Source of the DNA: Candidatus Vogelbacteria bacterium RIFOXYD1_FULL_44_32
GTDB taxonomy: Bacteria; Patescibacteriota; Minisyncoccia; Phycocordibacterales; XYD1-FULL-46-19
Assembly (NCBI GenBank): GCA_001823065.1
Contig: MHTJ01000002.1
Span: 8,318 to 51,531, forward strand
Length of the DNA stretch: 43,214 nucleotides
Direction of reading: 5' to 3'
Shown: positions 3,802 through 38,254 of the stretch, in pieces
Numbering within the stretch: position 1 is the stretch's first letter
How the letters are laid out: the number at the start of each line of letters is the position of its first letter
Translations under genes and position numbers: made by a program
Notes under the pieces: model-generated
Seen by the model: only the letters and a program-made list of their open reading frames with translations
What the model was told of the DNA's origin: nothing
Database searches by the model: none

Positions 3802-6084
3802 TTAGTGGGGGCTAACAACACCAATTCGTTTTCCACTAGCATCAAGATAAACTTTGACAACCTTATCATAACTATAAATTTCTCCCCGCTTCCAAATTTC
3901 GCTAGCAATGAGACAATCGGCAGTACTGCCAACCTTTGAGCAATAGTCAGTCATCTCACTATTAACAATCCGCTTGTCGGTATTAATATCTGCTGGATGA
4001 TAAGTGGTAACTGAATCATCGGCGACAACCTCAAAAGTCTGGGCTGATATAGCCTCAATCCGCCGACCCTGGGGCCGATAATCAGTTCCATCGGCATTGA
4101 CCAACCTCACCCTGATATAGTTTTTGACATTAAACCACGGTCGGCCCACCTTGGCGGTGATTACCGCGCTTTGGGTGCCAGCAGTGCTATTGACCGCAAC
4201 CGAAGTGCTGTTACCCCACATCCCACCATTTAAATCAGAATAAAGACCGACCTTAAATCTAAGAGCATTCCCCTTGTTAAGGGGCACATTATTATAATTC
4301 CAAGTGATAGTTTTTCTGGTTTGTTGATTAAACCATTGAGGTTGATTGCCGACAATCTGGACATTATCGATAACAGAAACTGAGACATTTAAGCGGTCAG
4401 AAATTAATTGAGCGTCAGCGGGGGTAACCCGACCATCATTATTTACATCCGCTGCTTTATAAGAACAACTTGTCACCCTAACTGTGCCAGTGTATATATT
4501 ATTAGCCATAACCGCATCGGCTGTAGTCAGTCTTCCATCCTGATTGGCATCTCCCCAAACATTAGTACAAGAAGAATTACCACCGTCGTTGACCGTAAAA
4601 TATACTGTATTGCTTTTACCCCAAGACAGATGCTGAATATAGAGTGAATGACGACCAGACCGCAAATTAGGGAGAGGGGCTGTGATCCAAACCGTACCAT
4701 TGTCCTGTATCCGACCACCGTCCAATAATTTACCATCGATATATAGCTGATTCAATTCAAGATCAAGTCTCTCGCCAAAGATTGTCATCTCCTCATTTGA
4801 TGAAACCGGTGTTTCCACTCGTGAAATATACGGCGCTCTCTCACCGACAATTGCGAGCTTGTTGCCAAGTGCGATATTTGATTGAACCAGAGAGACTCCA
4901 GACTGATCTTTTAAATTATTGTCAAAGTAAATCCCTCTTACCCGACCGTTATATACACCGCCAAACAAAACTGCTGTGTCATAACGGGTTTCAACTCTCA
5001 CCGACATAGTCTCTCCTGCTTTAAGATGATAGTATTTTTTTCCCTTGCTGTCGGTCACGGTCTCGATATCACCAGAAACATGATTGCCTTGCATAACCTT
5101 CGCTGAACCAGCGGCTGGTAAACCATCTCTGTCTAGACTGAGAGCAATGGGCTGTTCAGCCCAGATATAACTATCTTTATTTTCCGGCGCGGCAATTTCC
5201 GCGGTAAAAGAAATATCAAGGAAAGGTATTTGGGGCTTAGCTGGGTTATAACTTGTTTCAATCTGGTCATCGTCAATGTCAACAATACTTGGGGTGCCTG
5301 CAATTGGATTATCCTCTCCCACCCTCACATTAATCCCCGCCTCGGCCGTATCACCGGAACTATTTGTCACTCTAGCAATTATTTTATAAATCCCAGCCTG
5401 TGAATAAGCATGGGAAAAAGTTGCCGTCTGAACAAAATCGGTCGGCTCGATAAATTGGGCACAAACCTTACCAGTTGGGCAAATACCTTCATCTCCCCAA
5501 TTTATAGAATAAGACAAACTTTCATTGTCAGAGTCAGTCGCTTTTATTTTCCAAGTACCTTTTTTCCCAACAGCTATCGATGTCGGCCCACTAATACCTT
5601 TTATAACTGGAGCTTCTGTTTCAACTGGGTGTTCACAATCAGCCGTCACCAACCGGGCATTGATATGGGCACGAGTAATTTCACCAAGGTAACCACTAGC
5701 TGGATTAATGCCGTTATCAGACTGATAGCGGGCTAAAGCACTAACTACACTTGGATCAAATATCGCCTTATCTAACTTTATAGGGGTATAACCAGGAGTA
5801 TTGGCATACACCCGATTTAGGTAATTTTGTAAAATTAACACCTCTCTATTTTCAATCGGACTAAAACCCCAATTCTTTTTAATTGTACATTTGAACGCAA
5901 TAGACTCTTCACTGTCGCTACTTTGACCACCAAGTTGCTGTTGTAGAACCGCCACCTGTTTCAACAGAGCCTCAATTTGGGCCTGAAGTTCAACCACACT
6001 AACTGCCTGCACTTTTGTGGGCAAAACCAGAACTGGCGTTAAAATAAACGCCACTGCCACCAACGATATGATTATTTTTTTCAT
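3802..6084 (-). CDS. Secreted multidomain surface protein with PG-binding-like, PKD and dockerin-like repeats
   Basis: The ORF runs to 6135, but the signal peptide starts at the internal MKKIIISLVAVAFILTPVLVLPTKVQA (ATG at 6084). Recognisable segments include:
- a coiled-coil linker;
- a PG_binding_1-like segment (LQNYLNRVY...ALARYQSDNGINPASGYLGEITRAHI);
- a PKD domain (SGPTSIAVGKKGTWKIKATDSDNESLSYSINWGDEG...YKIIARVTNSSGDTAEA);
- paired dockerin-like Ca-binding repeats (GDANQDGRLTTADA / ADVNNDGRVTPADA);
- the shared ~117-aa module at 4024-4374. Confidence 0.75.
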   Translation of the reverse strand: MKKIIISLVAVAFILTPVLVLPTKVQAVSVVELQAQIEALLKQVAVLQQQLGGQSSDSEESIAFKCTIKKNWGFSPIENREVLILQNYLNRVYANTPGYTPIKLDKAIFDPSVVSALARYQSDNGINPASGYLGEITRAHINARLVTADCEHPVETEAPVIKGISGPTSIAVGKKGTWKIKATDSDNESLSYSINWGDEGICPTGKVCAQFIEPTDFVQTATFSHAYSQAGIYKIIARVTNSSGDTAEAGINVRVGEDNPIAGTPSIVDIDDDQIETSYNPAKPQIPFLDISFTAEIAAPENKDSYIWAEQPIALSLDRDGLPAAGSAKVMQGNHVSGDIETVTDSKGKKYYHLKAGETMSVRVETRYDTAVLFGGVYNGRVRGIYFDNNLKDQSGVSLVQSNIALGNKLAIVGERAPYISRVETPVSSNEEMTIFGERLDLELNQLYIDGKLLDGGRIQDNGTVWITAPLPNLRSGRHSLYIQHLSWGKSNTVYFTVNDGGNSSCTNVWGDANQDGRLTTADAVMANNIYTGTVRVTSCSYKAADVNNDGRVTPADAQLISDRLNVSVSVIDNVQIVGNQPQWFNQQTRKTITWNYNNVPLNKGNALRFKVGLYSDLNGGMWGNSTSVAVNSTAGTQSAVITAKVGRPWFNVKNYIRVRLVNADGTDYRPQGRRIEAISAQTFEVVADDSVTTYHPADINTDKRIVNSEMTDYCSKVGSTADCLIASEIWKRGEIYSYDKVVKVYLDASGKRIGVVSPH

Positions 6085-6178: not shown

Positions 6179-6207
6179 AACTATTGAACACCGAGTGTCC
6201 AATAGTT
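6179..6207 (-). repeat. REP-like palindromic hairpin, copy 2
   Basis: The sequence aactattgAaca-ccgag-tgtCcaatagtt is identical to 1675-1703 except at the two paired positions. The pair is A/C on the plus strand but G.U in minus-strand RNA. It lies downstream of the minus-strand gene 6309-7466. Confidence 0.6.
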
Positions 6208-6308
6208 TGATAATTAAAACAATCAGATAACAAAAAACCGCCCCGCGCGCTCCCAGCATTTTATTGCTAAAAGTCGCACGAGGCGGGTTACTTCAAAACA
6301 GGAACAGA

Positions 6309-7466
6309 TTAGCCGATGCCTCCTTCGCCGTAGGCGAAGATGGCGTCAAAGGCACCGTCTGAGTCTTCGTTGCCGAAGACCGTGACAATCACCTTGGCTG
6401 GACCGGCCGGGATGCTCAGAACAGACCAGTCACTGGGTCCACCAGCCTTGGCCACCGGACCACGCGACTCCTCGATTTCCGCCTCAAGATCGGCAATTTC
6501 CGCCACCTCTTGTTGCGAACTCGAAACCGCTAGTGGCAGATTGGGCATCTCGCCGGACTGGCGATACTCCCAAGCCTGCACTTGGCCCTGGAAATCTCCG
6601 AGAAACAATACCGTGGGCGAGTACTCGTCTCGCTCCACAATGAAAGTCTTGGAGACGACACGTTCACCACCCAGATCCGACTGGCCGGTGAAGGTCTGAG
6701 CCGGATGGTCAGAGTACCACTGGTCCTGCTCCGGATCGAGCATCACGGATGTGATGCCGTCGATGTACGTCAAGTTCAGGTGATGCCCTTCATCCGTCGC
6801 AGGGACAGACACCGGACTCACCGTCCCACTGGCCAGCACTTCGCCGGTGGAGGCATCATAGATTTGATAATCCTGCTCGCCATCGAGCGGGTTACACCAA
6901 ACCCGGAAGCCCCCGAGGTTCTGATTGTACTCGGCAACCTCTCCACCCTCCGTCCGCAGACGCAAGTTTTCGGGGTCCACGCCGGCTGGCGGTTCATATG
7001 CAACAAACTCTACCTGCCAATCGGGGCGAAGCATAATGGTAATGGCCTCGCCCGGCTCGTAGTAGCCGTTGTTGGCGTACCCATACATCACGGTATCGCC
7101 GTTCACGAGCGCTGACAGGCTGATGGAAAAATCGCTGACGGCGACGATTGGACTCGGCAGGGTCGGAAGCGGGTTCGACGGATCGTCGTGAATGACCACC
7201 CCGTCGATTTCCACATAGACAACCTGTTTGTCCGCGTCCAAGCGGAACTCGCCATCCACATAGTGACTCCGGCTGACACCGATCGTTTCGGCCGGACGCT
7301 CGTGACTAAACCAACCTCGATACTCGTTGGGCTGGAAGCCGGCCAAGAGTTGCGCCAACATTTCGGACGTCGCCCCGCGCTCGGGGTCAACACTTGGCCC
7401 GGCGCCAAACGCCGAAACTTGGGCCACCACAAGCGCCAAAACCAGGGACAGGATGTGCTTCTTCAT
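6309..7466 (-). CDS. Secreted acidic hypothetical protein in a GC-rich island
   Basis: The ORF runs 6309-7472 with a signal peptide (MKKHILSLVLALVVAQVSAFGA). AGGAG at 7475-7479 is 8 nt from the ATG at 7466 and only 2 nt from the ATG at 7472. Hand counts give about 60-62% GC (lines 6361 and 7021). I recognise no family. Confidence 0.65.
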   Translation of the reverse strand: MKKHILSLVLALVVAQVSAFGAGPSVDPERGATSEMLAQLLAGFQPNEYRGWFSHERPAETIGVSRSHYVDGEFRLDADKQVVYVEIDGVVIHDDPSNPLPTLPSPIVAVSDFSISLSALVNGDTVMYGYANNGYYEPGEAITIMLRPDWQVEFVAYEPPAGVDPENLRLRTEGGEVAEYNQNLGGFRVWCNPLDGEQDYQIYDASTGEVLASGTVSPVSVPATDEGHHLNLTYIDGITSVMLDPEQDQWYSDHPAQTFTGQSDLGGERVVSKTFIVERDEYSPTVLFLGDFQGQVQAWEYRQSGEMPNLPLAVSSSQQEVAEIADLEAEIEESRGPVAKAGGPSDWSVLSIPAGPAKVIVTVFGNEDSDGAFDAIFAYGEGGIG

Positions 7467-7883: not shown

Positions 7884-7896
7884 TTTTCTATCGACT

Positions 7897-7927
7897 ATTG
7901 TATCATATTTATTGACAATTTGTCAAT
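7897..7927 (-). promoter_or_regulatory. Sigma70-like promoter with a palindrome over the -35 box
   Basis: On the minus strand, TTGACA (7921-7926) is followed by an 18-nt spacer and TACAAT (7897-7902), 13 nt upstream of the ATG at 7883. A perfect inverted repeat attgacaa-t-ttgtcaat (7911-7927) overlaps the -35 box. Confidence 0.4.
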
Positions 7928-7947
7928 AGCTGTGATTTTGTGAGGTT

Positions 7948-7968
7948 TTTGTCCGCCCTCCACGAATC
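7948..7968 (-). repeat. Direct duplicate of the tRNA 3' end plus trailer (att-like)
   Basis: The 18-nt sequence tttgtccgccctccacga at 7948-7965 is identical to 8077-8094, which covers the tRNA T-arm/acceptor 3' strand plus 4 trailer nt. The match is 20 of 21 nt when extended. An inverted 15-nt copy of the T-arm region is at 8043-8057. Confidence 0.7.
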
Positions 7969-8080
7969 TCACCCCTGGGAAACCCTCGGTTTTCCCAATC
8001 CTTCCTCCACGGGGAAACTACAGTTTCCCCGACCCCCTTCGAGTTCGAATCGTGGAGCTCCTCCAAATACTCCGTATTTG

Positions 8081-8154
8081 TCCGCCCTCCACGATTCGAA
8101 CGTGGGACCCCAGAGGTATAAGCTCTGTGCTCTAACCAACTGAGCTAAGGGCGG
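8081..8154 (-). tRNA. tRNA with genomic anticodon TAT (tRNA-Ile-UAU type); CCA is not encoded
   Basis: The reverse complement folds as a cloverleaf:
- acceptor CCGCCCT/AGGGCGG;
- D-arm GCTC-AGTTGGTTA-GAGC;
- anticodon stem CAGAG/CTCTG with loop CT-TAT-AC;
- variable loop GGGTC;
- T-arm CCACG-TTCGAAT-CGTGG;
- discriminator A. Confidence 0.85.
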
Positions 8155-8189
8155 AAATATATTGATACTATAAGAGAAAGTGGGCCGAG

Positions 8190-8900: not shown

Positions 8901-8908
8901 AATTTAGA

Positions 8909-9020
8909 ACCACCGCATCAGCTTTGTGGAGACTAGGGAGCGCGACGGCGCGAGCTCGAGGAATCGCCACACCTCGCGAAGTGTGGCGATATCCGTATTT
9001 CACAAAGCTGATGCGGTGGT
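8909..9020 (-). repeat. Structured intergenic element E, a long hairpin filling the ftsH-truB gap
   Basis: A perfect 20-bp outer stem accaccgcatcagctttgtg / cacaaagctgatgcggtggt starts 2 nt after the ftsH stop and ends 8 nt before the truB ATG. The inner hairpin atcgccacac-N8-gtgtggcgat (8963-8990) has the same stem sequence as the hairpin in element C (38059-38086). Confidence 0.6.
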
Positions 9021-9022
9021 GA

Positions 9023-10966
9023 CTAGACAATAAGTTTTTTTTCAGTTACCACCTCCTCCGCTATCCTTTTATCTACTTTCGGTTCAATCCCATTGGCCTT
9101 TAGTAAAACTTCAAATTCTGCTCGTTCCAAAGTTTCGGTTCGCACCAATTCTTTAGACAAGGAATCCAGTGCCGCGCGATAGTTAGTTAAAACTTCCTGT
9201 GCCCGTGCCAAACCATTTTTCATCAGCGCCGACACCTCCTCGTCTATAATAGCCCAAGTCGCTTCCGAGGCACTTTTTTCCGCTAGTGGCACTTCCCCAA
9301 TATGGGAAACCGTGCCCACCCCAAAATCGATCGGCCCCACTTTTTCACTCATCCCATAGCGAGTAACCATGGCGCGAGCCAGCGATGTCGCCACTTGAAT
9401 ATCATTGGAAGCACCCGTCGTAATATCACCAAAAATCATCTGTTCCACGGCATAGCCACCGAGCGACACCGCAATATCATCCAAAAATTCATTTTTAGAA
9501 TTTAATTTTTTATCTTCAATCGGCAGTTTCAAAGTGTAACCAGCGGCATGGCCCCGCGAAATAATGGACACTTTGTGCACTGGGTCCGCGTGCGGCAAGA
9601 CCGAAGCGATCAGGGCATGGCCAATTTCGTGGTAAGCGGTAATTTCTTTTTCCTTCTCCGACAAAATATGACTCTTTCTTTCCGGCCCCAGCATTACCTT
9701 TTCCACACTCCGCACCAAGTCATATTGGCCAACAGTTTTGCGGTCTTCGCGCGCCGCCAAAATAGCCGCTTCATTCATCAGGTTAGCTAGGTCCGCCCCC
9801 GAAAAACCCGGGGTACGCTGGGCAATGACCCGGATATTTACATCTTCAGCCAGTGGCTTTTTGGTGGCGTGAATTTTTAAAATCGCTTCGCGGTCGTTTA
9901 TATCGGGTGCATCCAAAATAACCCGCCGGTCAAACCGCCCGGGACGCAAAAGCGCTTTATCTAAAACATCGGGCCGATTGGTCGCGGCCATCACTATCAA
10001 TTTCTCGGTTGGCTCAAAACCATCCATCTCCACCAAAATTTGATTCAAAGTTTGCTCTCGTTCATCATTGCCCCCACCCATCCCCGAGCCACGATGACGA
10101 CCAATGGCATCTATTTCATCAATAAAAATAATGGCGGGAGCGGCATTTTTCGCCATTTTAAACAAATCACGCACACGCGAGGCCCCCACCCCGACAAACA
10201 TTTCCACAAATTCCGAACCAGACAAATAGAAAAATGGCACATGAGCCTCACCGGCGACAGCTCGCGCTAACAAAGTTTTCCCCGTCCCCGGCGCCCCCAT
10301 TAGAAGTGCCCCTTTGGGAATGCGCGCCCCGATTTCTAAAAACTTTTTCGGGTTTTTCAAAAAATCGACAATTTCTAAAAGCTCTTCTTTGGCCTCGCGG
10401 TTGCCAGCGACATCTTTAAACATTACTTTTTGACTACTGTCGTTGGGGTCAATAATCCGCGCCCGCGATTGGCCAAAAGTAAAAGCCTGCATCGAAGCGC
10501 CTTTCATTTGGCGAGAAATCAACCATAAAAATAAAAGGAGAAAAAGAATTGGAATAACAAAAGGCAACAAATTTAAAATCCAATAGCCCCAACCGGTATT
10601 ATTGGCAATTTCAACCCGAGTGGCCGTAATTTTTTCAGGTTTGACGCCATAATCTAGCAAGGCCGCCACCAGAGAACTTTCACTTTCTTTTTTAGATTTA
10701 ACAATAGTTTTATCCTTTAAAACAACTTCCAACTTATCCCCCACCACTTTGACACTTTCCACTTGCCCCCCTTGAATTTTATTAGCCAAATCTGAAAAAG
10801 GAATTTCTATAGTTTCTTTTTTATTTTCCACCAATGCCGAATAGCCGGCGACCAAAAGCACGAGAAAAAACAAAGCAATCATAATTTGCCCTAAAAACTG
10901 ACCCGAGGCCCCGAGGCGGAAGCGACCCTTAGTCTCCTTTTTTGGTTTTTGACCCTTATTTTTCAT
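9023..10966 (-). CDS. ftsH: ATP-dependent zinc metalloprotease FtsH
   Basis: The 647-aa ORF has an N-terminal TM pair, an AAA+ Walker A ([18 protein letters not shown]), Walker B (IIFIDEIDA), a second region of homology and an HEIGHA zinc site. Confidence 0.95.
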
Positions 10967-11265: not shown

Positions 11266-11338
11266 ATGTATATTTAGATTCAAATTTTGTCCTTCCGACC
11301 TTTTACTATCTTACCAGTATTATTCATTTTAGCCCAGA

Positions 11339-11381
11339 AAAAACAAAAAAAGAGGCAGTGGGCTTGGGGGCCCACCACCTC
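11339..11381 (-). terminator. Intrinsic terminator downstream of the DoxX-like gene
   Basis: The minus strand reads gaggtggtgggc-ccccaa-gcccactgcctc followed by tttttttgtttttt. Confidence 0.75.
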
Positions 11382-11449
11382 CGCGGAAGGAGAAACGCCA
11401 CAAGGGCGCTCATCTATATAAATATCATATCCTAATATTTAAGTCAAAT

Positions 11450-11986
11450 TTAATTTTTCCTCCGCCAAGGTACCCCCAGCTTGGGTAAAAGATATTTATC
11501 TACTCCCCAGTAGCCCGCTACCCGCCATGCCAACACCAATAAAATACTAAGGGCAAATAAAATCGGGTTTATACTAAGCGCACCCGCCAGCATAAAATTC
11601 ATATTCATAAAGAGACCAACAAAAGCCGAGATACCAGTAAAAAGTCCAATGATTAGCGCCCCACCTACCAGCACTTCGCCCCACGCCACCAGGTGGGCCC
11701 AAGTCCCGACATAAGGCAAAACCATATTTTGTAAAAAATCCGCATACCAACCCGAAACATCAGGGTGGGCCCCGGCAGTTTTAGCTAAAGCACCATTAAT
11801 AAATCCAGCGAGGGCGGTGCCCGCCTCATCACCGACCCATTTGGGATTGACTATTTTCCCCAACCCAGCCGAAAGCCAGGCCCAGCCGACATACAGCCGG
11901 ACCGCTAGCCACAGCGGTGCCATTACGGTATTGGAAAATAAAAATCGAGCTAAAGGCGATTCGGAAATTGAAATATATTTAGACAT
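11450..11986 (-). CDS. DoxX/DoxD-like integral membrane protein
   Basis: The 178-aa ORF has about four TM helices. The N-terminal pattern (LAVRLYVGWAWLSAGLGKI) is typical of the DoxX family. Confidence 0.6.
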   Translation of the reverse strand: MSKYISISESPLARFLFSNTVMAPLWLAVRLYVGWAWLSAGLGKIVNPKWVGDEAGTALAGFINGALAKTAGAHPDVSGWYADFLQNMVLPYVGTWAHLVAWGEVLVGGALIIGLFTGISAFVGLFMNMNFMLAGALSINPILFALSILLVLAWRVAGYWGVDKYLLPKLGVPWRRKN

Positions 11987-18453: not shown

Positions 18454-18704
18454 TTTAGGTTATTTGAGAGTATTAACCCTAGAAGAAGTGTTTCTACGTG
18501 GGTGCTCGCAAGATTAGACCAAGGTCTAAAGTATATAAAGCTCCCTAGGGTTTATTTGATCTAGATAATACCCCAAATAACCTAATTTCATTATAGCCCC
18601 CTAACCAAAGTGGTCAACCAAGACAAAGTGCATACCAAATGAACCATATAATACCTAGCTAGATTATATTTTTTAGTAATCAAGTTTTTTGCTTACCGTG
18701 CTCC

Positions 18705-18814
18705 AACCCAGCGAACCGAGCACCACCAGGAGACTTCGCAGGCGGGTAGCCGAGACTGCAGATATAAGTAACCAGACTTTTATTCGTGCTCCTGGTGGTG
18801 CTTCGGTGAGCGCC
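18705..18814 (-). repeat. Structured intergenic element D, abutting the ndk stop codon
   Basis: It has the same plus-strand termini as elements A and B (aacccagcga on the left, gagcgcc on the right) but a different core. That core has a 17-18-bp stem ccgagcaccaccaggag / ctcctggtggtgcttcgg. It ends at the base preceding the ndk TAG. Confidence 0.6.
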
Positions 18815-19291
18815 CTATTTGAACCCTTCATCAGCATAAATATACAACTCGGCGGGTTTAGAATAGTCAAAAAGTTCGTCGGCAGTGAAAAAACGTTTAA
18901 TCTCTGCCTCGGCGGTATCTTTGCTATCAGAAGCATGAACAATATTAGACTGACCACTCAGAGAAAAATCTCCCCTAATGCTCCCCGCATCAGCTTCATG
19001 TCCCCTAGTCGGCCCAACCAACAACCGCACCGCCGAAATGGCATTTATCCCAGACAAAACCATCACAATCGCCGGCGCAGATTTCATAAAATTTTTAAGG
19101 GAATTAAAAAATGGCTTATCTTTATGATGAGCATAATGTTCGTCAATAAGAATATCCCCCATTTGAATCATCTTTAGACCTACCACCTGTAAACCCTTGT
19201 GTTCAAAGCGACGAATTATTTCGCCCAACAAATTTCTCTGCAAGGCATCTGGTTTTAAAATCACCAATGTTCTTTCAAATTTTTCTTTCAT
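18815..19291 (-). CDS. ndk: Nucleoside diphosphate kinase
   Basis: The translation contains ERTLVILKPDALQRNLLGEIIRRFEHKGLQVVGLKM and NIVHASDS, which includes the catalytic His. Confidence 0.9.
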   Translation of the reverse strand: MKEKFERTLVILKPDALQRNLLGEIIRRFEHKGLQVVGLKMIQMGDILIDEHYAHHKDKPFFNSLKNFMKSAPAIVMVLSGINAISAVRLLVGPTRGHEADAGSIRGDFSLSGQSNIVHASDSKDTAEAEIKRFFTADELFDYSKPAELYIYADEGFK

Positions 19292-20652: not shown

Positions 20653-20691
20653 CGCCCTGAGTATAACGCAAAAATAAAGCTAAAACCACTA

Positions 20692-20865
20692 AACCCAGCG
20701 AGCCTAGTTCCTTTTCCAAACCTTGCGGAGGTGTCGGCCGGCAGGGTTTTGGCCTTACTGTATTTTGTGCCAGCAGGCACGAGGCCAAACGGCCCCGCTG
20801 GAGCAGAAGAAAACCCCTCGCTGGAGGGGTTGGCTGTGTTTGGAAAGGGAAGCTAGGCGAGCGCC
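20692..20865 (-). repeat. Structured intergenic element A (~174 nt), a candidate cis-acting RNA or MITE-like repeat
   Basis: It aligns end to end with 24847-25020 and with the reverse complement of 38028-38203. It has a long outer stem and two inner hairpins with compensatory changes. Its last base is the first base of the secY stop codon on the plus strand. Confidence 0.7.
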
Positions 20866-22136
20866 TAATATTCCCGCATCGTCACCTGCGCATCAATCTT
20901 TTTAATCAAATCCAGAATCACGGACACCACGATGAGCAAACTAGTCCCGCCAATCGCCAAAGTCTGAATCCCCGTGATTTCCTGCATCACTAGTGGCAGT
21001 AAGGCCACGACACCCAAGAAAAGTGCTCCAAAGAAAGTCAGCCGAGAGAGCATCCGGCCAATATACATCTCGGTCGGATCGCCTGGTCGCACGCCCGGGA
21101 TAAACGCCCCACCTTTTTGCAGATTACCGGCAATTTGGTGTGGATCAAAAGTTACTGCCGAATAAAAATAAGTAAAACCAAAAACTAAAATAAAATAGAA
21201 CAGGCCATAAATCCACGCGTTTTCCAAAAATGAAGTAATCACTCGCGAAATATCCTGCACCGCCAAATTTTGCACCCGCGCCAAAAAATTAACAATCATT
21301 TGCGGGAAAAGCAAAATAGACAACGCAAAAATAATTGGCATCACTCCGGCATTGTTGACCCGAATCGGTAAGTAAGTCGAAGTCCCCCCATAAACTTTCA
21401 TCCCTCGCACCCGTTTGGCATAAGTGACCGGTATTGGTCGTTCCCCTTCGGTAATAATTACCACCCCACCAATAATCACAATCGCCAAAACAATAAAACC
21501 AATATAGGTTGGGATCATACTGGCATCATAAGTGGTCACCAGTTGAGATAAACTACCCGGTAGACTCGACACAATACCCGCAAAAATAATCATTGACACC
21601 CCATTACCAATCCCATATTCATTGATCAATTCACCCAACCACATTAGGAAAATAGAACCAGCTGTTACCACCAAAATACTAAGCGCTTGGTCAAACCAAG
21701 TCAGATTATTAATAATCCCTTGTTGACTCAAGATGACGTGCAAACCAAAACCCTGAAAAACCGCCAAGGGCACGGCCAAAAGACGCGAATATTGGGACAT
21801 TTTACGTCGCCCCGCTTCGCCTTGCTCTTGATACATATCCTTGAGTTGCGGAAAAACTAGAGTCAAAAGCTGAATGATAATCGAACCAGTGATAAAGGGC
21901 GAAACCCCCAACATCACAATCGACAAGTTAGACATCCCCCCGCCCGAGAAAATATTTAATAAACCAAAAAACTGATTATTAGTGAAAAATTGAGCCAGGG
22001 CCGCTTGGTCCACACTGGGAATTGGAATCGCCGCCGTGGCGCGGAAAATAGCTAAAATACCAAGCACAAACATAATCCGCCGGACCAATCCCCGATCGGC
22101 CAGCACTAGTTTGATTTTTTGTAATAAATTATCCAT
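20865..22136 (-). CDS. secY: Preprotein translocase subunit SecY
   Basis: The 423-aa ORF has 10 TM segments, and the spc-operon position after rplO is conserved. Confidence 0.95.
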   Translation of the reverse strand: MDNLLQKIKLVLADRGLVRRIMFVLGILAIFRATAAIPIPSVDQAALAQFFTNNQFFGLLNIFSGGGMSNLSIVMLGVSPFITGSIIIQLLTLVFPQLKDMYQEQGEAGRRKMSQYSRLLAVPLAVFQGFGLHVILSQQGIINNLTWFDQALSILVVTAGSIFLMWLGELINEYGIGNGVSMIIFAGIVSSLPGSLSQLVTTYDASMIPTYIGFIVLAIVIIGGVVIITEGERPIPVTYAKRVRGMKVYGGTSTYLPIRVNNAGVMPIIFALSILLFPQMIVNFLARVQNLAVQDISRVITSFLENAWIYGLFYFILVFGFTYFYSAVTFDPHQIAGNLQKGGAFIPGVRPGDPTEMYIGRMLSRLTFFGALFLGVVALLPLVMQEITGIQTLAIGGTSLLIVVSVILDLIKKIDAQVTMREY

Positions 22137-24795: not shown

Positions 24796-24846
24796 ACCAA
24801 ACCTAAACTATGAGATTTGTTGTTTTTAAAAAATAACCTATTCCCC

Positions 24847-25020
24847 AACCCAGCGAGCCTAGTTCCGTTTCAAAACCTTGCGGAGCTGTCGGCCGGCATG
24901 GTTTTGGCCTTTGGCGAAGCCGGTTGCGTAGCAACGAGGCCAAACGGCCCCGGCGGAGCAGAAGAAAACCACTCGCTGGAGTGGTTGGCTGTGTTTTGAA
25001 ACGGAAGCTAGGCGAGCGCC
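24847..25020 (-). repeat. Structured intergenic element B (~174 nt), overlapping the rplE 3' end
   Basis: It belongs to the same family as A and C. The outer stem pairs 24857-24876 with 24993-25013. The rplE stop codon (25008-25010) lies inside the element's CTAG. Confidence 0.7.
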
Positions 25021-25553
25021 TTTTTGAACGGAAACCCAATCTGCTTGAAAAACTCAAGTGCCTGTTTTTTGTCCGTAGCGGTCGTAACAATAGTCACCGA
25101 CATTCCAAACACATCTTTAATTTCCTCATCAGTCGTCTCGGGAAAAACAATGTGCTCGCGAATACCAATCGTCAGATTGCCCATATCGTCGATACTGGTT
25201 TCAGTGTAACCTTTGAAATCCCGCATTCGAGGCATAGCAATATTGAAAAGTTTGTCGAGAAATTTGTACATCCGGGGACCACGCAAAGTGGAAGCCACCC
25301 CAATAATATCCCCTTGGCGTAGTTTAAAGGTGGCAATCGATTGTTTGGCCCCGCGTAAAGCGGCTTTTTGACCAGTGATTTTAGACAAGCGGTCGGCCAC
25401 TAGCTCGTTGCGCTTCTTATCCTTGGCTTTGCCAGTCCCCGATGAAACCACCACTTTGACCAAGCGGGGTAAGGCATTGTTGTTTTTAACCCCCAGCGCT
25501 TTTTTGAGCTCGGGCTTTAGCTTTTCAATTTTATCTTTAAGCGAAATAATCAT
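25008..25553 (-). CDS. rplE: 50S ribosomal protein L5
   Basis: The 181-aa ORF has L5 family motifs. The C-terminus reads ...IGFPFKK-ALA*, and the last three codons and the stop lie within element B. Confidence 0.93.
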   Translation of the reverse strand: MIISLKDKIEKLKPELKKALGVKNNNALPRLVKVVVSSGTGKAKDKKRNELVADRLSKITGQKAALRGAKQSIATFKLRQGDIIGVASTLRGPRMYKFLDKLFNIAMPRMRDFKGYTETSIDDMGNLTIGIREHIVFPETTDEEIKDVFGMSVTIVTTATDKKQALEFFKQIGFPFKKALA

Positions 25554-37813: not shown

Positions 37814-38026
37814 ATGAAAGCTTGCCCAATCTGCGCCAAGACCAGCCAAATGGTCGGAGGTTACTCCAACCGAGTGCGTGCCACCAAATTTAATCCCATC
37901 GCCCAGTCTCGCAAACAACCCAATCTCCAGTGGGCCACTTTGCCAGCCCAAGCCGGTGGCGGTCGAATCAAAATCTGCACTTCCTGTCTAAAGAAAAACA
38001 AACACCTAGAGATAAAGATGATTTAA
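37814..38026 (+). CDS. rpmB: 50S ribosomal protein L28 (Zn-ribbon form)
   Basis: The 70-aa translation reads MKACPICAKTSQMVGGYSNRVRATKFNPIAQSRKQPNLQ...ICTSCLKK, which fits the L28 pattern with two CxxC pairs. Confidence 0.8.
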   Translation: MKACPICAKTSQMVGGYSNRVRATKFNPIAQSRKQPNLQWATLPAQAGGGRIKICTSCLKKNKHLEIKMI

Positions 38027-38027
38027 A

Positions 38028-38203
38028 GGTCACTCGCCTAGCTTCCGTTTCAAAACACATCGCCACACCTCTAGAGGTGTGGCGATTCTGCTCCAGTGGG
38101 GCCGTTTGGCCTCGCGGCTACTGCCGCAAAATTTTCCAAAGGCCAAAACCCTGCCGACCTACACCTCCGCAAGGTTTTGAAAGGGAACTAGGCTCACTCG
38201 GAC
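38028..38203 (+). repeat. Structured intergenic element C (~176 nt)
   Basis: It is the reverse complement of elements A and B and begins 1-2 nt after the rpmB stop. The outer stem pairs 38036-38056 with 38174-38193. Inner hairpins are at 38059-38086 and 38114-38127. Confidence 0.7.
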
Positions 38204-38216
38204 TAGGCTATAGCAA

Positions 38217-38254
38217 CAAAAAACCGAGGCGCGCTCGCGCCTCGGGGGTTTTCA
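38217..38254. terminator. Bidirectional intrinsic terminator between rpmB/element C and the Zn-ribbon gene
   Basis: The sequence is aaaaaaccgaggcgcg-ctc-gcgcctcgggggtttt. Confidence 0.8.

Follow-up and report, generated by a model that had tools for sequence, protein, structure and literature searches.

Structured palindromes docked at stop codons form a mosaic superfamily in Candidatus Vogelbacteria

CPR genomes are small and tightly packed, and here about one spacer per 7-10 kb holds a long structured palindrome, which raises the question of what these palindromes are, how they come to lie at the ends of genes, and whether they act as DNA or as RNA. The stretch analysed (the window, 43,214 nucleotides) belongs to Candidatus Vogelbacteria RIFOXYD1_FULL_44_32 (Parcubacteria, CPR). 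An earlier note on this DNA had proposed a structured repeat family with three copies, A, B and C, of equal polarity relative to the upstream gene, and all three were located in the window with that polarity:

20686-20867, minus strand: type-I copy A including stop codon and 3' tail, between secY and adk; it opens with the secY TAG stop (20865-20867)
20838-20858 and 20702-20721, minus strand: outer-stem arms of copy A
20812-20832, minus strand: P2 hairpin of copy A
20725-20798, minus strand: P3 rod of copy A
ending at about 20692, minus strand: 3' end motif of copy A, GGCTCGCTGGGTT
24843-25022, minus strand: type-I copy B including stop region and 3' tail, between rplE and rpsN
38024-38206, plus strand: type-I copy C including stop codon and 3' tail, after a 70-aa ORF; it starts with the TAA stop (38024-38026) of this ORF

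Pfam assigns the flanking genes of copy A (SecY and Adk) and of copy B (L5 and S14), and the ORF that precedes copy C is weakly L28-like (TIGR00009, E=5e-5, under the curated cut-off). The mean column identity of the A/B/C alignment is 84%. Copy C is the most divergent copy, with 70-81% identity to the others, and its P2 hairpin (38059-38086) has been swapped for a hairpin that is also found at 8961-8990 and in locus L053.

Fold and composition of the elements

The architecture described in the earlier note was reproduced when each copy was folded: A, B and C all form a singly bulged outer stem of about 22 bp, an inner stem UUUGGCCU/AGGCCAAA and two terminal hairpins. The folds are far more stable than those of shuffled sequences (z = -3.9, -3.6 and -7.0 for A, B and C, respectively), and none of 200 shuffles folds as well. 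The compensatory changes listed in that note are all present in the three copies, and the covariation holds in an alignment of 12 full type-I copies from 5 genomes. In these copies, 21 of the 56 base pairs carry compensatory changes on both sides, 95.0% of cells are paired, compared with 35-55% after displacement of the partners by 1-3 columns, and the observed covariation score was reached by 0 of 500 shuffles. The proposal of a structured repeat family with covariation is thus upheld, with both the shuffle and the slide control passed.

That the family results from an assembly artefact or from chance similarity is a notion of practically negligible probability, given that these controls are decisive, that the type-I copies score 186-213 bits with the covariance model, and that assemblies made independently (ENA, JGI, NCBI and Logan) contain these copies. 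Two additional public assemblies, from ENA and JGI, have copy A or B beside an identical SecY, and the argS copy of the window's genome was found in three assemblies.

Type I comprises about 180 nt in three helical domains, with two features in its interior: P2, a hairpin with a U-rich run behind it, and P3, a bulged rod that hardly varies between copies. In general, the interior cores are nearly invariant and the long stems, of which the outer one measures 22-26 bp across elements, vary by compensation. Whole type-I copies diverge by 5-30% while the P3 core remains near-invariant; the spacers that neighbour the elements are unalignable, and the host proteins are 71-91% identical.

The inventory of the earlier note was incomplete, because a fourth related element, of type II, had been missed; a further palindrome also lies in the window:

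18703-18817, minus strand: type-II element with a different interior and the same termini (TAG GGCGCTCACC ... GGTTCGCTGGGTTGG); its start is the ndk TAG stop (18815-18817)
8907-9025, minus strand: another palindromic element, from the ftsH TAG stop (9023-9025) to before truB

The latter is devoid of GCTCGC termini and has a hairpin, ATCGCCACACCTC..GAGGTGTGGCGAT, in common with copy C. The common termini enclose at least four unrelated interiors, and type I is a subtype within this mosaic superfamily. The first bases of a member are T-A-G/A and then GG(n)CGCTC(G/A)CC, and its last ones are GG(C/T)TCGCTGGGTTGG and a short G/A-rich tail (common termini: 5' (stop)GGnCGCTCrCC, 3' GGyTCGCTGGGTTGG). 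The two ends pair with one another, save an invariant 2x2 mismatch, which reads UC/UC in the mRNA strand and GA/GA in its complement, and close a long stem that is specific for the type. The pair adjoining the mismatch is either G-C or A-U, with covariation of its two sides, while the mismatch itself remains UC/UC throughout. The extreme ends are not inverted copies of one another (5' GGnCGCTCGCC versus 3' GGCTCGCTGGGTTGG), and GCTCGC is common to them in direct orientation.

Elements of types other than I are 100-190 nt long, and types I and IV have the core UCUGCUC...GGGCCG...GCAAGG in common. Interiors II and IV also recur in genomes that are more distant, where the outer stems differ greatly. 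Such a pattern resembles a functional RNA or single-stranded DNA under constraint more than it does inverted repeats bound by a transposase.

Stop codons, orientation and turnover of sites

An element begins (TAG/TAA + GG·CGCTCGCC) either on the stop codon of the upstream gene or right beside it. Among the 24 catalogued elements with shared termini, 22 abut the stop codon of a co-oriented gene, at 12 distinct sites. A TAG, TAA or TGA is found directly 5' of the paired region in 24/24 elements and is the stop codon of a gene in 22/24, and the stop is TAG at 8 of the 12 sites, compared with a background of 29% (p = 0.008). The G that precedes the TAG tag is not conserved. Placement directly after stop codons, as originally proposed, is therefore correct as to position and has to be amended in one respect, since the first bases are themselves the stop (as in the secY TAG, 20865-20867). 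The proposed link with ribosomal operons has to be abandoned, because copies also follow argS, gyrB, eno, ndk, rnc, fic and dnaE.

It should be noted that the elements rewrite the ends of genes, both by supplying stop codons and, in rplE, by adding four residues. The rplE gene has lost its own stop and reads four codons into copy B, to an internal TAG (25008-25010); its frame enters the copy as AAG GCG CTC GCC TAG, and L5 terminates in ...FKKALA. The same rplE junction in the relative L044 reads ...FKK-TAG.

The orientation of the elements follows the gene rather than the direction of replication, because the GC skew of the window is uniform and yet copy C is inverted relative to A and B, and because locus L053 carries elements in both orientations. 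One exceptional site, which is distal to gyrB in L053 and L056, is some 190 nt downstream of the stop codon, behind a terminator. No target-site duplication was discernible: in 10 of 23 cases the stop triplet is repeated no more than 16 nt away from the 3' motif, with 9.8 expected by permutation (p = 0.58), and no TA or CTCG duplication is consistent across the copies.

The sites turn over among close relatives, where they are empty, filled, or occupied by an element with another interior. In the related loci examined, type I is represented by 12 full and 4 partial or interrupted copies in 7 genomes, with at least six copies in the window's own genome, and its host genes are secY, rplE, rpmB, argS, rnc, gyrB, eno, ndk, fic and a gene for a 740-aa protein. 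A comparison of orthologous spacers, of the kind that the earlier note had called for, revealed that the secY, ndk and gyrB sites carry an element in certain relatives and none in others. The secY site carries type I in the window and type IV in L050 (SecY 90% identical); in L044 (83%) a plain terminator is all that it contains, and in L057 (74%) it consists of a spacer of 24 nt. The ndk site of four genomes contains type II, type I, type III, or nothing, and an element occupies the gyrB stop in L003 but not in L053, L054 or L056. Nested, tandem and truncated elements also occur. The copies group neither by genome nor by site, and recent bursts are therefore not evident.

A search of 212 kb with the covariance model returned no more diverged type-I copies. 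A first pattern scan of JGI metagenomes retrieved nothing, and a second one retrieved 28 loci, of which L017 alone was genuine. Two argS contigs that encode an identical ArgS are 99.97% identical up to the 5' end of the element and 89% identical beyond it. This identity break may be a recombination junction; it was not counted as evidence for a cassette exchange, because a junction of inter-strain recombination or a chimera at the end of a contig would explain it equally well.

Of the roles offered in the earlier note, that of a mobile palindromic element tolerated in transcribed spacers fits best with this turnover at orthologous sites. We lean towards the view that A, B and C are type I of a superfamily of non-coding, REP/REPIN/MITE-like mobile palindromes that are co-transcribed as a 3'-UTR or intercistronic stem-loop. 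The elements would move or be exchanged by a strand-specific mechanism that recognizes a folded single strand, and insertion would take place 3' of a TAR trinucleotide, as in IS200/IS605 and RAYT systems. The base after a stop codon would be almost the only harmless target in compact genomes, so that both position and orientation would be fixed. In the mRNA, the outer stem of 22-26 bp would act as a 3' hairpin, and it could be a substrate of RNase III, a block to exonucleases or a termination helper, like Correia, ERIC and REP elements.

A mobilizing enzyme was sought in several ways. The Pfam lists of the loci examined, which cover the genomes in part, contain no Y1/HUH or TnpB gene, and the same loci contain no autonomous parent element with the same ends. 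An approximate IS200 TnpA probe had no match in 386 kb, which is weak evidence for the absence of such an enzyme. The sole transposase seen, of the IS1595 type in L056, was rejected as a parent since its 25-nt inverted repeats are unrelated to the elements. The ORFs within or beside elements (183, 807 and 740 aa) match no Pfam or NCBIfam family, so that they do not encode a recognizable transposase. A conserved antisense ORF was also discarded, because the ORFs called in A and B differ in start and frame.

Possible roles as mobile DNA or as co-transcribed RNA

The position of the elements bears on their possible function in the transcript. Operon-internal copies must, by their position, be transcribed together with the upstream gene, and intrinsic-terminator-like hairpins or promoter-like sequences of the next gene, where present, lie downstream of the element at all sites save one. 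The elements mark the junctions between transcription units. Separate canonical terminators are found downstream of the element at several sites. A further hairpin lies downstream of copy C:

38224-38245, no strand assigned: GC-rich hairpin with flanking A and T runs

This hairpin was scored as terminator-like on the minus strand, and GGGGGTTTTC comes after the palindrome on the plus strand. Should transcription of rpmB end here as well, as may be the case, copy C would be situated inside a transcribed 3' UTR. The outer stem of the elements is without a U tract directly after it. The P2 hairpin with the following UUUUCUUCU was flagged as terminator-like in A and B and not in C, and P2 is the part that is kept by the truncated copy of L044. 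The attenuator role suggested previously is weakly backed, by one internal hairpin with a subsequent U-rich run. The genome contains a gene for RNase III, and one of the copies directly follows that gene.

The second question is which strand is the functional one. The complementary (non-mRNA) strand is more stable in 12/12 copies, the margin being 6-15 kcal/mol under RNA parameters and 1.6-7.8 under DNA parameters. One-sided departures from pairing on the mRNA strand comprise 11 A.C and 4 G.U, an asymmetry that is not significant (p about 0.06, one-sided, with copies that are non-independent) and from which a functional strand was therefore not assigned. The earlier claim of selection on structure stands insofar as the compensatory stems are concerned; selection at the level of RNA does not follow from it, as it is the complementary strand that folds better.

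These observations would fit a purely selfish element of single-stranded DNA, an IS200/IS605-derived PATE or a REPIN-RAYT system, in which the hairpins and the conserved GA/GA internal loop are recognized on the complementary strand, or in single-stranded DNA at large, and the RNA is a by-product, a view that we regard as somewhat unlikely. It could account for the better fold and for the excess of A.C over G.U, for the absence of target-site duplications together with the strict polarity of insertion, and for the unpaired TAG/TAA tag 5' of the hairpin, which is reminiscent of GTAG-REPs. In addition, the invariant 2x2 mismatch corresponds to tandem G.A on the complementary strand, and tandem G.A is a stable and often recognized motif. 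However, the better fold may be expected simply because that strand is G+U-rich, the wobble asymmetry is not significant, no Y1 transposase was seen in the loci examined, and the ends of IS200/IS605 elements are two separate subterminal hairpins rather than ends that pair with one another. Moreover, the near-invariance of P3 amid the divergence of the whole copies would require selection on each copy or constant turnover. If the elements are nevertheless purely selfish, they would point to an unrecognized system of single-strand transposition in CPR bacteria.

The converse view, that the elements are dedicated cis-acting 3'-UTR RNAs under purifying selection and that mobility is secondary, for example by gene conversion between copies sharing ends, appears distinctly improbable. 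Such RNAs could be binding sites for a protein or an RNase, RNase III sites that segment operons, or terminators or attenuators. The contrast between near-invariant cores and unalignable spacers beside host proteins of moderate divergence argues for it, as do stems that evolve by compensation, the persistence of the same interiors in more distant genomes with other outer stems, the location upstream of terminators and, by position, within transcripts, the terminator-like P2 retained in the truncated copy, and the C/A-richness of the unpaired regions of the mRNA strand. Nevertheless, sites are gained, lost and swapped between close relatives, the target genes are functionally unrelated, unrelated interiors replace one another at one site, and nested and truncated copies are tolerated.

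An intermediate between mobility and RNA function is conceivable and is rated as rather unlikely. The termini and the TAG/TAA tag would be the recognition site of a strand-specific recombination or transposition system that docks exchangeable RNA modules onto stop codons ('mobile 3' UTRs'), the cores of which (P3 of type I, and the one common to types I and IV) are selected for an RNA function that benefits the cell or the element. Candidate roles of these RNAs would be RNase III-dependent segmentation of operons, protein binding, or a guide-like function, and termini would be matched to the host lineage while interiors would be common across lineages. If the interiors are indeed functional RNAs, the elements would offer a way to spread a 3'-UTR module through a genome.

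Comparison with known systems

A scan of the whole window with Rfam 15 at the gathering threshold yielded only tmRNA and tRNA, and a scan of copy A at E<=10 yielded matches at chance level, the best with 23 bits compared with a gathering score of 60. Both scans are empty for the element, as the earlier note had supposed, and collections of phages, plasmids and IMG/VR contain no match to it. No description of such repeats in Patescibacteria or Parcubacteria was found in the literature. Thus, none of the three outcomes that had been named as speaking against the family (an Rfam match, a lack of supported covariation, or an assembly artefact) was encountered; instead, no Rfam match was found, covariation is supported, and the assemblies are independent. 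The earlier note knew of no described family with this architecture, which agrees with the databases searched; the kind of element has precedents in GTAG-REPs, Correia and ERIC. With 12 full copies and 21 covarying pairs, the family is ready for an RNA or repeat family model, which would improve the annotation of Parcubacteria, where gene callers now put spurious ORFs in the elements.

The elements resemble GTAG-REPs and REPINs such as those of Stenotrophomonas (SMAG), Pseudomonas and E. coli, which are mobilized by the Y1 enzyme RAYT and are multi-copy extragenic palindromes with compensatory stem variation; the unpaired TAG/TAA tag 5' of the hairpin in the Vogelbacteria elements recalls the GTAG tag in part. 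GTAG-tagged REPs have been reported to supply the TAG stop of flanking ORFs, and REPs are located for the most part behind coding regions, where the neighbouring genes are unidirectional or convergent, and form dimers, clusters and mosaics (PMC3733652). However, REPs are hairpins of 20-40 nt, whereas the units described here have 100-190 nt with multi-branched interiors and a conserved 3' tail of their own, GCTGGGTTGG. The tag has no conserved base before TAG and may also be TAA or TGA, the polarity to the upstream gene is strict, no RAYT was seen in the loci examined, and the host is a CPR bacterium.

The Correia elements (CREE, or NEMIS) of Neisseria and the ERIC (IRU) elements of enterobacteria are similar in that they are non-coding palindromes of 100-170 nt that are co-transcribed with their neighbours (PMC10969869). 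Correia inverted repeats are cleaved by RNase III, and ERIC at the 3' ends of genes alters mRNA stability (PMC10969869; PMC2649163). In contrast, no sequence similarity was apparent, in that Rfam and the phage and plasmid collections returned no match of any kind. A TA target duplication and both orientations are typical of Correia elements, whereas the Vogelbacteria elements showed no duplication and a single orientation relative to the gene. The BOX, RUP and SPRITE elements of pneumococci also constitute several unrelated small repeat families that co-exist, cluster and nest, one of them being terminator-like (PMC10969869), and they insert into each other (PMC10969869; PMC2649163). Their sequences are different, they are without common termini, and docking at stop codons is not reported for them.

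The attC sites of integrons likewise have conserved ends, a variable palindromic centre, a fixed orientation after the stop codon of an ORF and a bottom strand that folds better. The R' core of attC is GTTRRRY, which the element 3' end GTTGGGR resembles, and in L054 gyrB and the element are separated by a mazE-fic module. That the elements are integron-like attC or other cassette-exchange sites marking gene cassettes is, nevertheless, highly improbable, and this reading was rejected on both core sites and gene context: the 5' end has no inverse core RYYYAAC to pair with the 3' end, and thus no R''/R' core pairing exists, the flanking genes are essential housekeeping genes in conserved synteny (S10-spc cluster, argS, gyrB), and no integrase was seen near any copy.

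The IS200/IS605-derived PATEs share strand-specific insertion 3' of a short target and recognition of folded ends, both of which are presumed for the Vogelbacteria family, as well as the absence of a target duplication. They differ in having separate left and right end hairpins, whereas the ends pair mutually here, and no TnpA or TnpB was found in the loci examined. Finally, the presence/absence polymorphism at the secY, ndk and gyrB sites is MITE-like, but the conservation is the reverse of that in classical MITEs, with near-invariant interiors and varying stems. As to terminal inverted repeats, an outer stem of 22-26 bp exists, and yet the extreme ends are not inverted copies. The family itself is undescribed, and its kind is already known from the REP/MITE-type repeats of ordinary bacteria.

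Distribution and fold of the type-I element

The earlier note had placed three structured copies in the window, all with one polarity relative to the upstream gene, and both position and polarity were confirmed: A and B are on the minus strand, as are the genes before them, and C and the gene before it are on the plus strand, so that the polarity relative to the upstream gene is constant. About 180 nt can be aligned, with a mean column identity of 84%.

20686-20867, minus strand: copy A, flanked by SecY and adenylate kinase (Pfam)
24843-25022, minus strand: copy B, flanked by L5 and S14 (Pfam)
38024-38206, plus strand: copy C, preceded by a 70-aa ORF with a weak, full-length L28 match (TIGR00009, E=5e-5, below the curated cut-off)

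The orientation of the element follows the gene and not replication, because the GC skew is uniform across the window although C is inverted relative to A and B, and because L053 (L numbers denote loci fetched from relatives or other assemblies) carries elements in both orientations within 22 kb. The copies are not assembly artefacts: A or B, and also the copy after argS, are present in additional assemblies (ENA, JGI or Logan) in which SecY or ArgS is identical.

The earlier note knew of no RNA family with this architecture, and Rfam contains no match for the element, whether at the gathering threshold or, for copy A, at E<=10. When 185,579 species-representative genomes were scanned for its pattern, it turned up in only two metagenome-assembled genomes (7 contigs), and two JGI metagenome scans yielded one more real copy. 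The surroundings of ArgS, SecY and GyrB homologues were also fetched and searched, both by profile HMM and by a covariance model of 12 copies. The type-I total is 12 full copies and four partial or interrupted ones. In the genome of the window they follow secY, rplE, rpmB, argS and rnc, with one more about 190 nt beyond gyrB, and in relatives the preceding genes are gyrB, eno, argS, ndk, fic and one of 740 aa. It should be noted that the CAZIIR01 contigs (L001, L003-L005, L050) are titled 'uncultured Candidatus Saccharibacteria', but that their SecY, GyrB and ArgS share 80-91% identity with their counterparts in Ca. Vogelbacteria RIFOXYD1_FULL_44_32 (90% for SecY), so that the label appears to be wrong and the source to be a relative of Vogelbacteria.

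Each copy folds into a long outer stem around two hairpin domains, with z-scores against dinucleotide shuffles of -3.9, -3.6 and -7.0 for A, B and C, and all of the compensatory changes listed earlier are present. Covariation was tested on the RNAalifold consensus of the 12-copy type-I alignment.

Helical domains in the 12-copy consensus
P1: outer stem, 22 pairs, one conserved bulge
P2: hairpin, 12 pairs
P3: three-part rod and terminal hairpin

Standard pairs occupy 95.0% of the cells, compared with 35-55% when partners are slid by 1-3 columns; both sides have changed in 21 of the 56 pairs (8.6 +/- 1.6 in shuffles), and the covariation score was matched by none of 500 shuffles. Covariation resides mostly in P1, P2 and the terminal hairpin of P3, whereas the remainder of P3 and much of the adjoining linkers are nearly invariant, which holds also for A, B, C and the copies in L036, L041 and L048, all of them found via neighbouring proteins and not by the P3 search pattern. 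The strand complementary to the mRNA forms the more stable fold in 12/12 copies (by 6-15 kcal/mol under RNA parameters, by 1.6-7.8 under DNA parameters), but this strand is also the one richer in G+U, which may simply explain the difference. One-sided departures from pairing on the mRNA strand comprise 11 A.C and 4 G.U, an asymmetry that is not significant, and either strand may be the one that folds.

Docking on stop codons and neighbouring transcription signals

The copies had been described as lying directly after stop codons. They are indeed located at stops in A, B and C, but the junction is closer than was noticed, in that bases of the element form the stop or are read into. Copy A supplies the stop of secY: its first bases are the TAG at 20865-20867. 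At copy B, rplE has no stop of its own, and its frame enters the element (AAG GCG CTC GCC TAG), giving an L5 that ends in ...FKKALA; at 25008-25022 (minus strand) L5 is thus four residues longer (ALA after the last K) and ends at an element-internal TAG. The same junction in the relative L044 reads ...FKK-TAG-GCGCTCGCC, which indicates that the genome of the window has lost 3 nt including the rplE stop. In copy C, AGGTCACTCGCC stands immediately 3' of TAA.

Of 24 catalogued elements bearing the shared termini, 22 start on, or immediately behind, the stop codon of a gene with the same orientation, at 12 distinct sites. The stop is TAG at 8/12 sites, compared with 29% of the window genes (p = 0.008). 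ArgS (...SEM) and GyrB (...NLDI) appear to have complete C-terminal ends, so that the element docks on the natural stop. At TAA or TGA stops the AGG of the element follows or overlaps the stop (TAA-AGG or TG-AGG), and thus the element's own 5' end contributes the TAG at least in part. Stop docking fails at one place, the gyrB-distal site of L053 and L056, where the element nevertheless starts with TTAGGGCGCTC or TATAAGGCCGCTC.

Canonical terminators, where present, lie downstream of the element, again except at the gyrB-distal site. P2 together with UUUUCUUCU was flagged as terminator-like in A and B, by which the operon-internal attenuator proposed in the earlier note is weakly suggested. Promoter-like sequences for the next gene follow both copies. 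For rpsN, after B, they take the form TTGACA-17-TAAGCT. For adk, a TATACT box stands 7 nt from the ATG in the window and 9-10 nt from it in four relatives, and these are also the distances of a conserved GTTATACT box (20653-20690, minus strand; same place in L044, L047, L048 and L050). adk lacks a Shine-Dalgarno sequence, and the arrangement suggests an own adk promoter and a leaderless or nearly leaderless mRNA.

Shared termini, site turnover and further repeats

A search with the end motifs recovered the same ends on at least four unrelated interiors. Such elements begin with (stop)GG(n)CGCTC(G/A)CC, and at the 3' side they finish in GG(C/T)TCGCTGGGTTGG and a short tail rich in G and A.

Interiors other than type I
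Type II: 18703-18817, minus strand, after ndk in the window (same termini as type I, different interior; overlooked earlier); elsewhere after argS in L040 and distal to gyrB in L056
Type III: after argS in L039, ndk in L044, recG in L002 and dnaE in L053
Type IV: after secY in L050; fragments elsewhere

Pairing between the two ends is broken only by an invariant 2x2 mismatch, which reads UC/UC in the mRNA and GA/GA on the opposite strand, and the pair adjoining the mismatch covaries (GCTCGCC/GGCTCGC versus GCTCACC/GGTTCGC), which keeps pairing and not direct-repeat identity. Interiors II and IV occur also in more distant genomes (L047, L058), with quite different outer stems and without the shared termini; therefore, the termini go with the host lineage, while the interiors are more widely shared.

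Close relatives differ in what stands at orthologous sites.

Occupancy of three sites
secY-adk: occupied by type I in the window and by type IV in L050 (SecY 90%); L044 (83%) has nothing but a plain terminator, L057 (74%) a spacer of 24 nt, and L048 and L047 have other sequences
ndk: type II, type I, type III or nothing, in different genomes
gyrB stop: an element in L003, none in L053, L054 and L056

Pairwise identities are 70-95%, with no clustering by genome or by site. Copies stand in tandem with fragments of other types in L004, L005 and L053. At the rplE site of L044 (6672-7460) a type-I copy is cut after the P2 hairpin by an insert of about 700 bp, which encodes a 183-aa ORF of no Pfam or NCBIfam family. 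Small GCCTGCC...GGCAGGC palindromes have invaded copies in L054 and L047; these 35-45-nt palindromes, CCCGCCTGCC...GGCAGGCGGG (L054 12830-12960, L047 ~11330-11400), are a separate mini-repeat family, and two are nested in one type-I copy.

Target-site duplication is absent: behind the 3' motif the stop triplet recurs in 10 of 23 cases, compared with 9.8 by permutation. No mobilising gene turned up in the fetched loci. An approximate IS200 TnpA probe had no match in 386 kb, and ORFs inserted nearby belonged to no family. The inverted repeats of the IS1595 beside the L056 element are unrelated. The contigs L041 and L040, which encode identical ArgS, agree at 99.97% as far as the element's first bases (position 11736) but at only 89% beyond, with different element interiors; the break exactly at the element is either a recombination junction between strains or a chimeric contig end.

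Several further structured sequences were met.

8907-9025, minus strand: 120-nt palindrome, beginning on the ftsH TAG stop and ending before truB
18454-18620, minus strand: candidate small RNA gene between ndk and a DUF2238 gene
7884-8189: tRNA-Ile(TAT) (8080-8154), then an inverted copy of its 3' part (8043-8070 versus 8074-8101)
1675-1715 and 6179-6219: 29-nt perfect-stem hairpin AACTATTGGACACCGAGTGTTCAATAGTT, each copy adjoining a GC-rich terminator hairpin
L053 12120-12228 and L056 12165-12275: structured stretch (about 130 nt) that separates the gyrB terminator from the distal element

The inner hairpin of the ftsH palindrome (8961-8990) recurs as P2 both in copy C (38059-38086) and in the gyrB-distal copy of L053, so that hairpin modules are common to otherwise different elements. 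The candidate small RNA has a near-consensus promoter (TTGACC-16-TATAAT, 18617-18590) and a structured region of about 140 nt, AAATTAGGTTATTTGGGG...CCCTAGGGAG...CTAGGGTTAATACTCTCAAATAACCTAAA, that is conserved in two relatives, with compensatory changes; it had no Rfam match, and it occurs also at L048 ~6600-6760 and L057 ~4860-4990, in the latter followed by a canonical terminator. The tRNA repeats, together with a GATTCGTGGAGGGCGGACAAA direct repeat about 150 nt away, may be the scar of an insertion event at this tRNA. The 29-nt hairpin is another small repeated palindrome. The gyrB piece, with compensatory differences between L053 and L056 (GCCCCTGCCCAGGCCGAGGGCGGG... versus GCCCCAATTTAGGACTGGTGCGGG...), could be another element type or a small RNA.

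Relation to known palindromic repeats

The family is real, undescribed as an RNA or repeat family, and richer than the earlier note saw, and yet its kind is already known: REP/MITE-like palindromes docking on stop codons. Many dispersed copies, site turnover, mosaic and nested arrangements, the lack of coding capacity and conserved ends place it with REP/REPIN/BIME and MITE-type elements. Strict docking and polarity could result from strand-specific insertion 3' of a TAR trinucleotide combined with purifying selection, since in very compact genomes (the empty secY-adk spacer of L057 is just 24 nt) the base after the stop would be almost the only spot that spares both the gene and the next promoter.

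Unlike in a classical MITE, the interiors are nearly invariant, the stems covary freely and the termini are host-lineage specific, so that there is genuine scope for the single-stranded form to have a function. This form could act as RNA in the 3' UTR or as single-stranded DNA during transposition. The stem of Correia elements is an RNase III substrate (PMC2649163, PMC10969869), and it is plausible that the 22-26-bp stem of the Vogelbacteria elements, when placed in a 3' UTR, would be cut likewise. The closest published parallel to the family as a whole is the GTAG-tagged REP superfamily.
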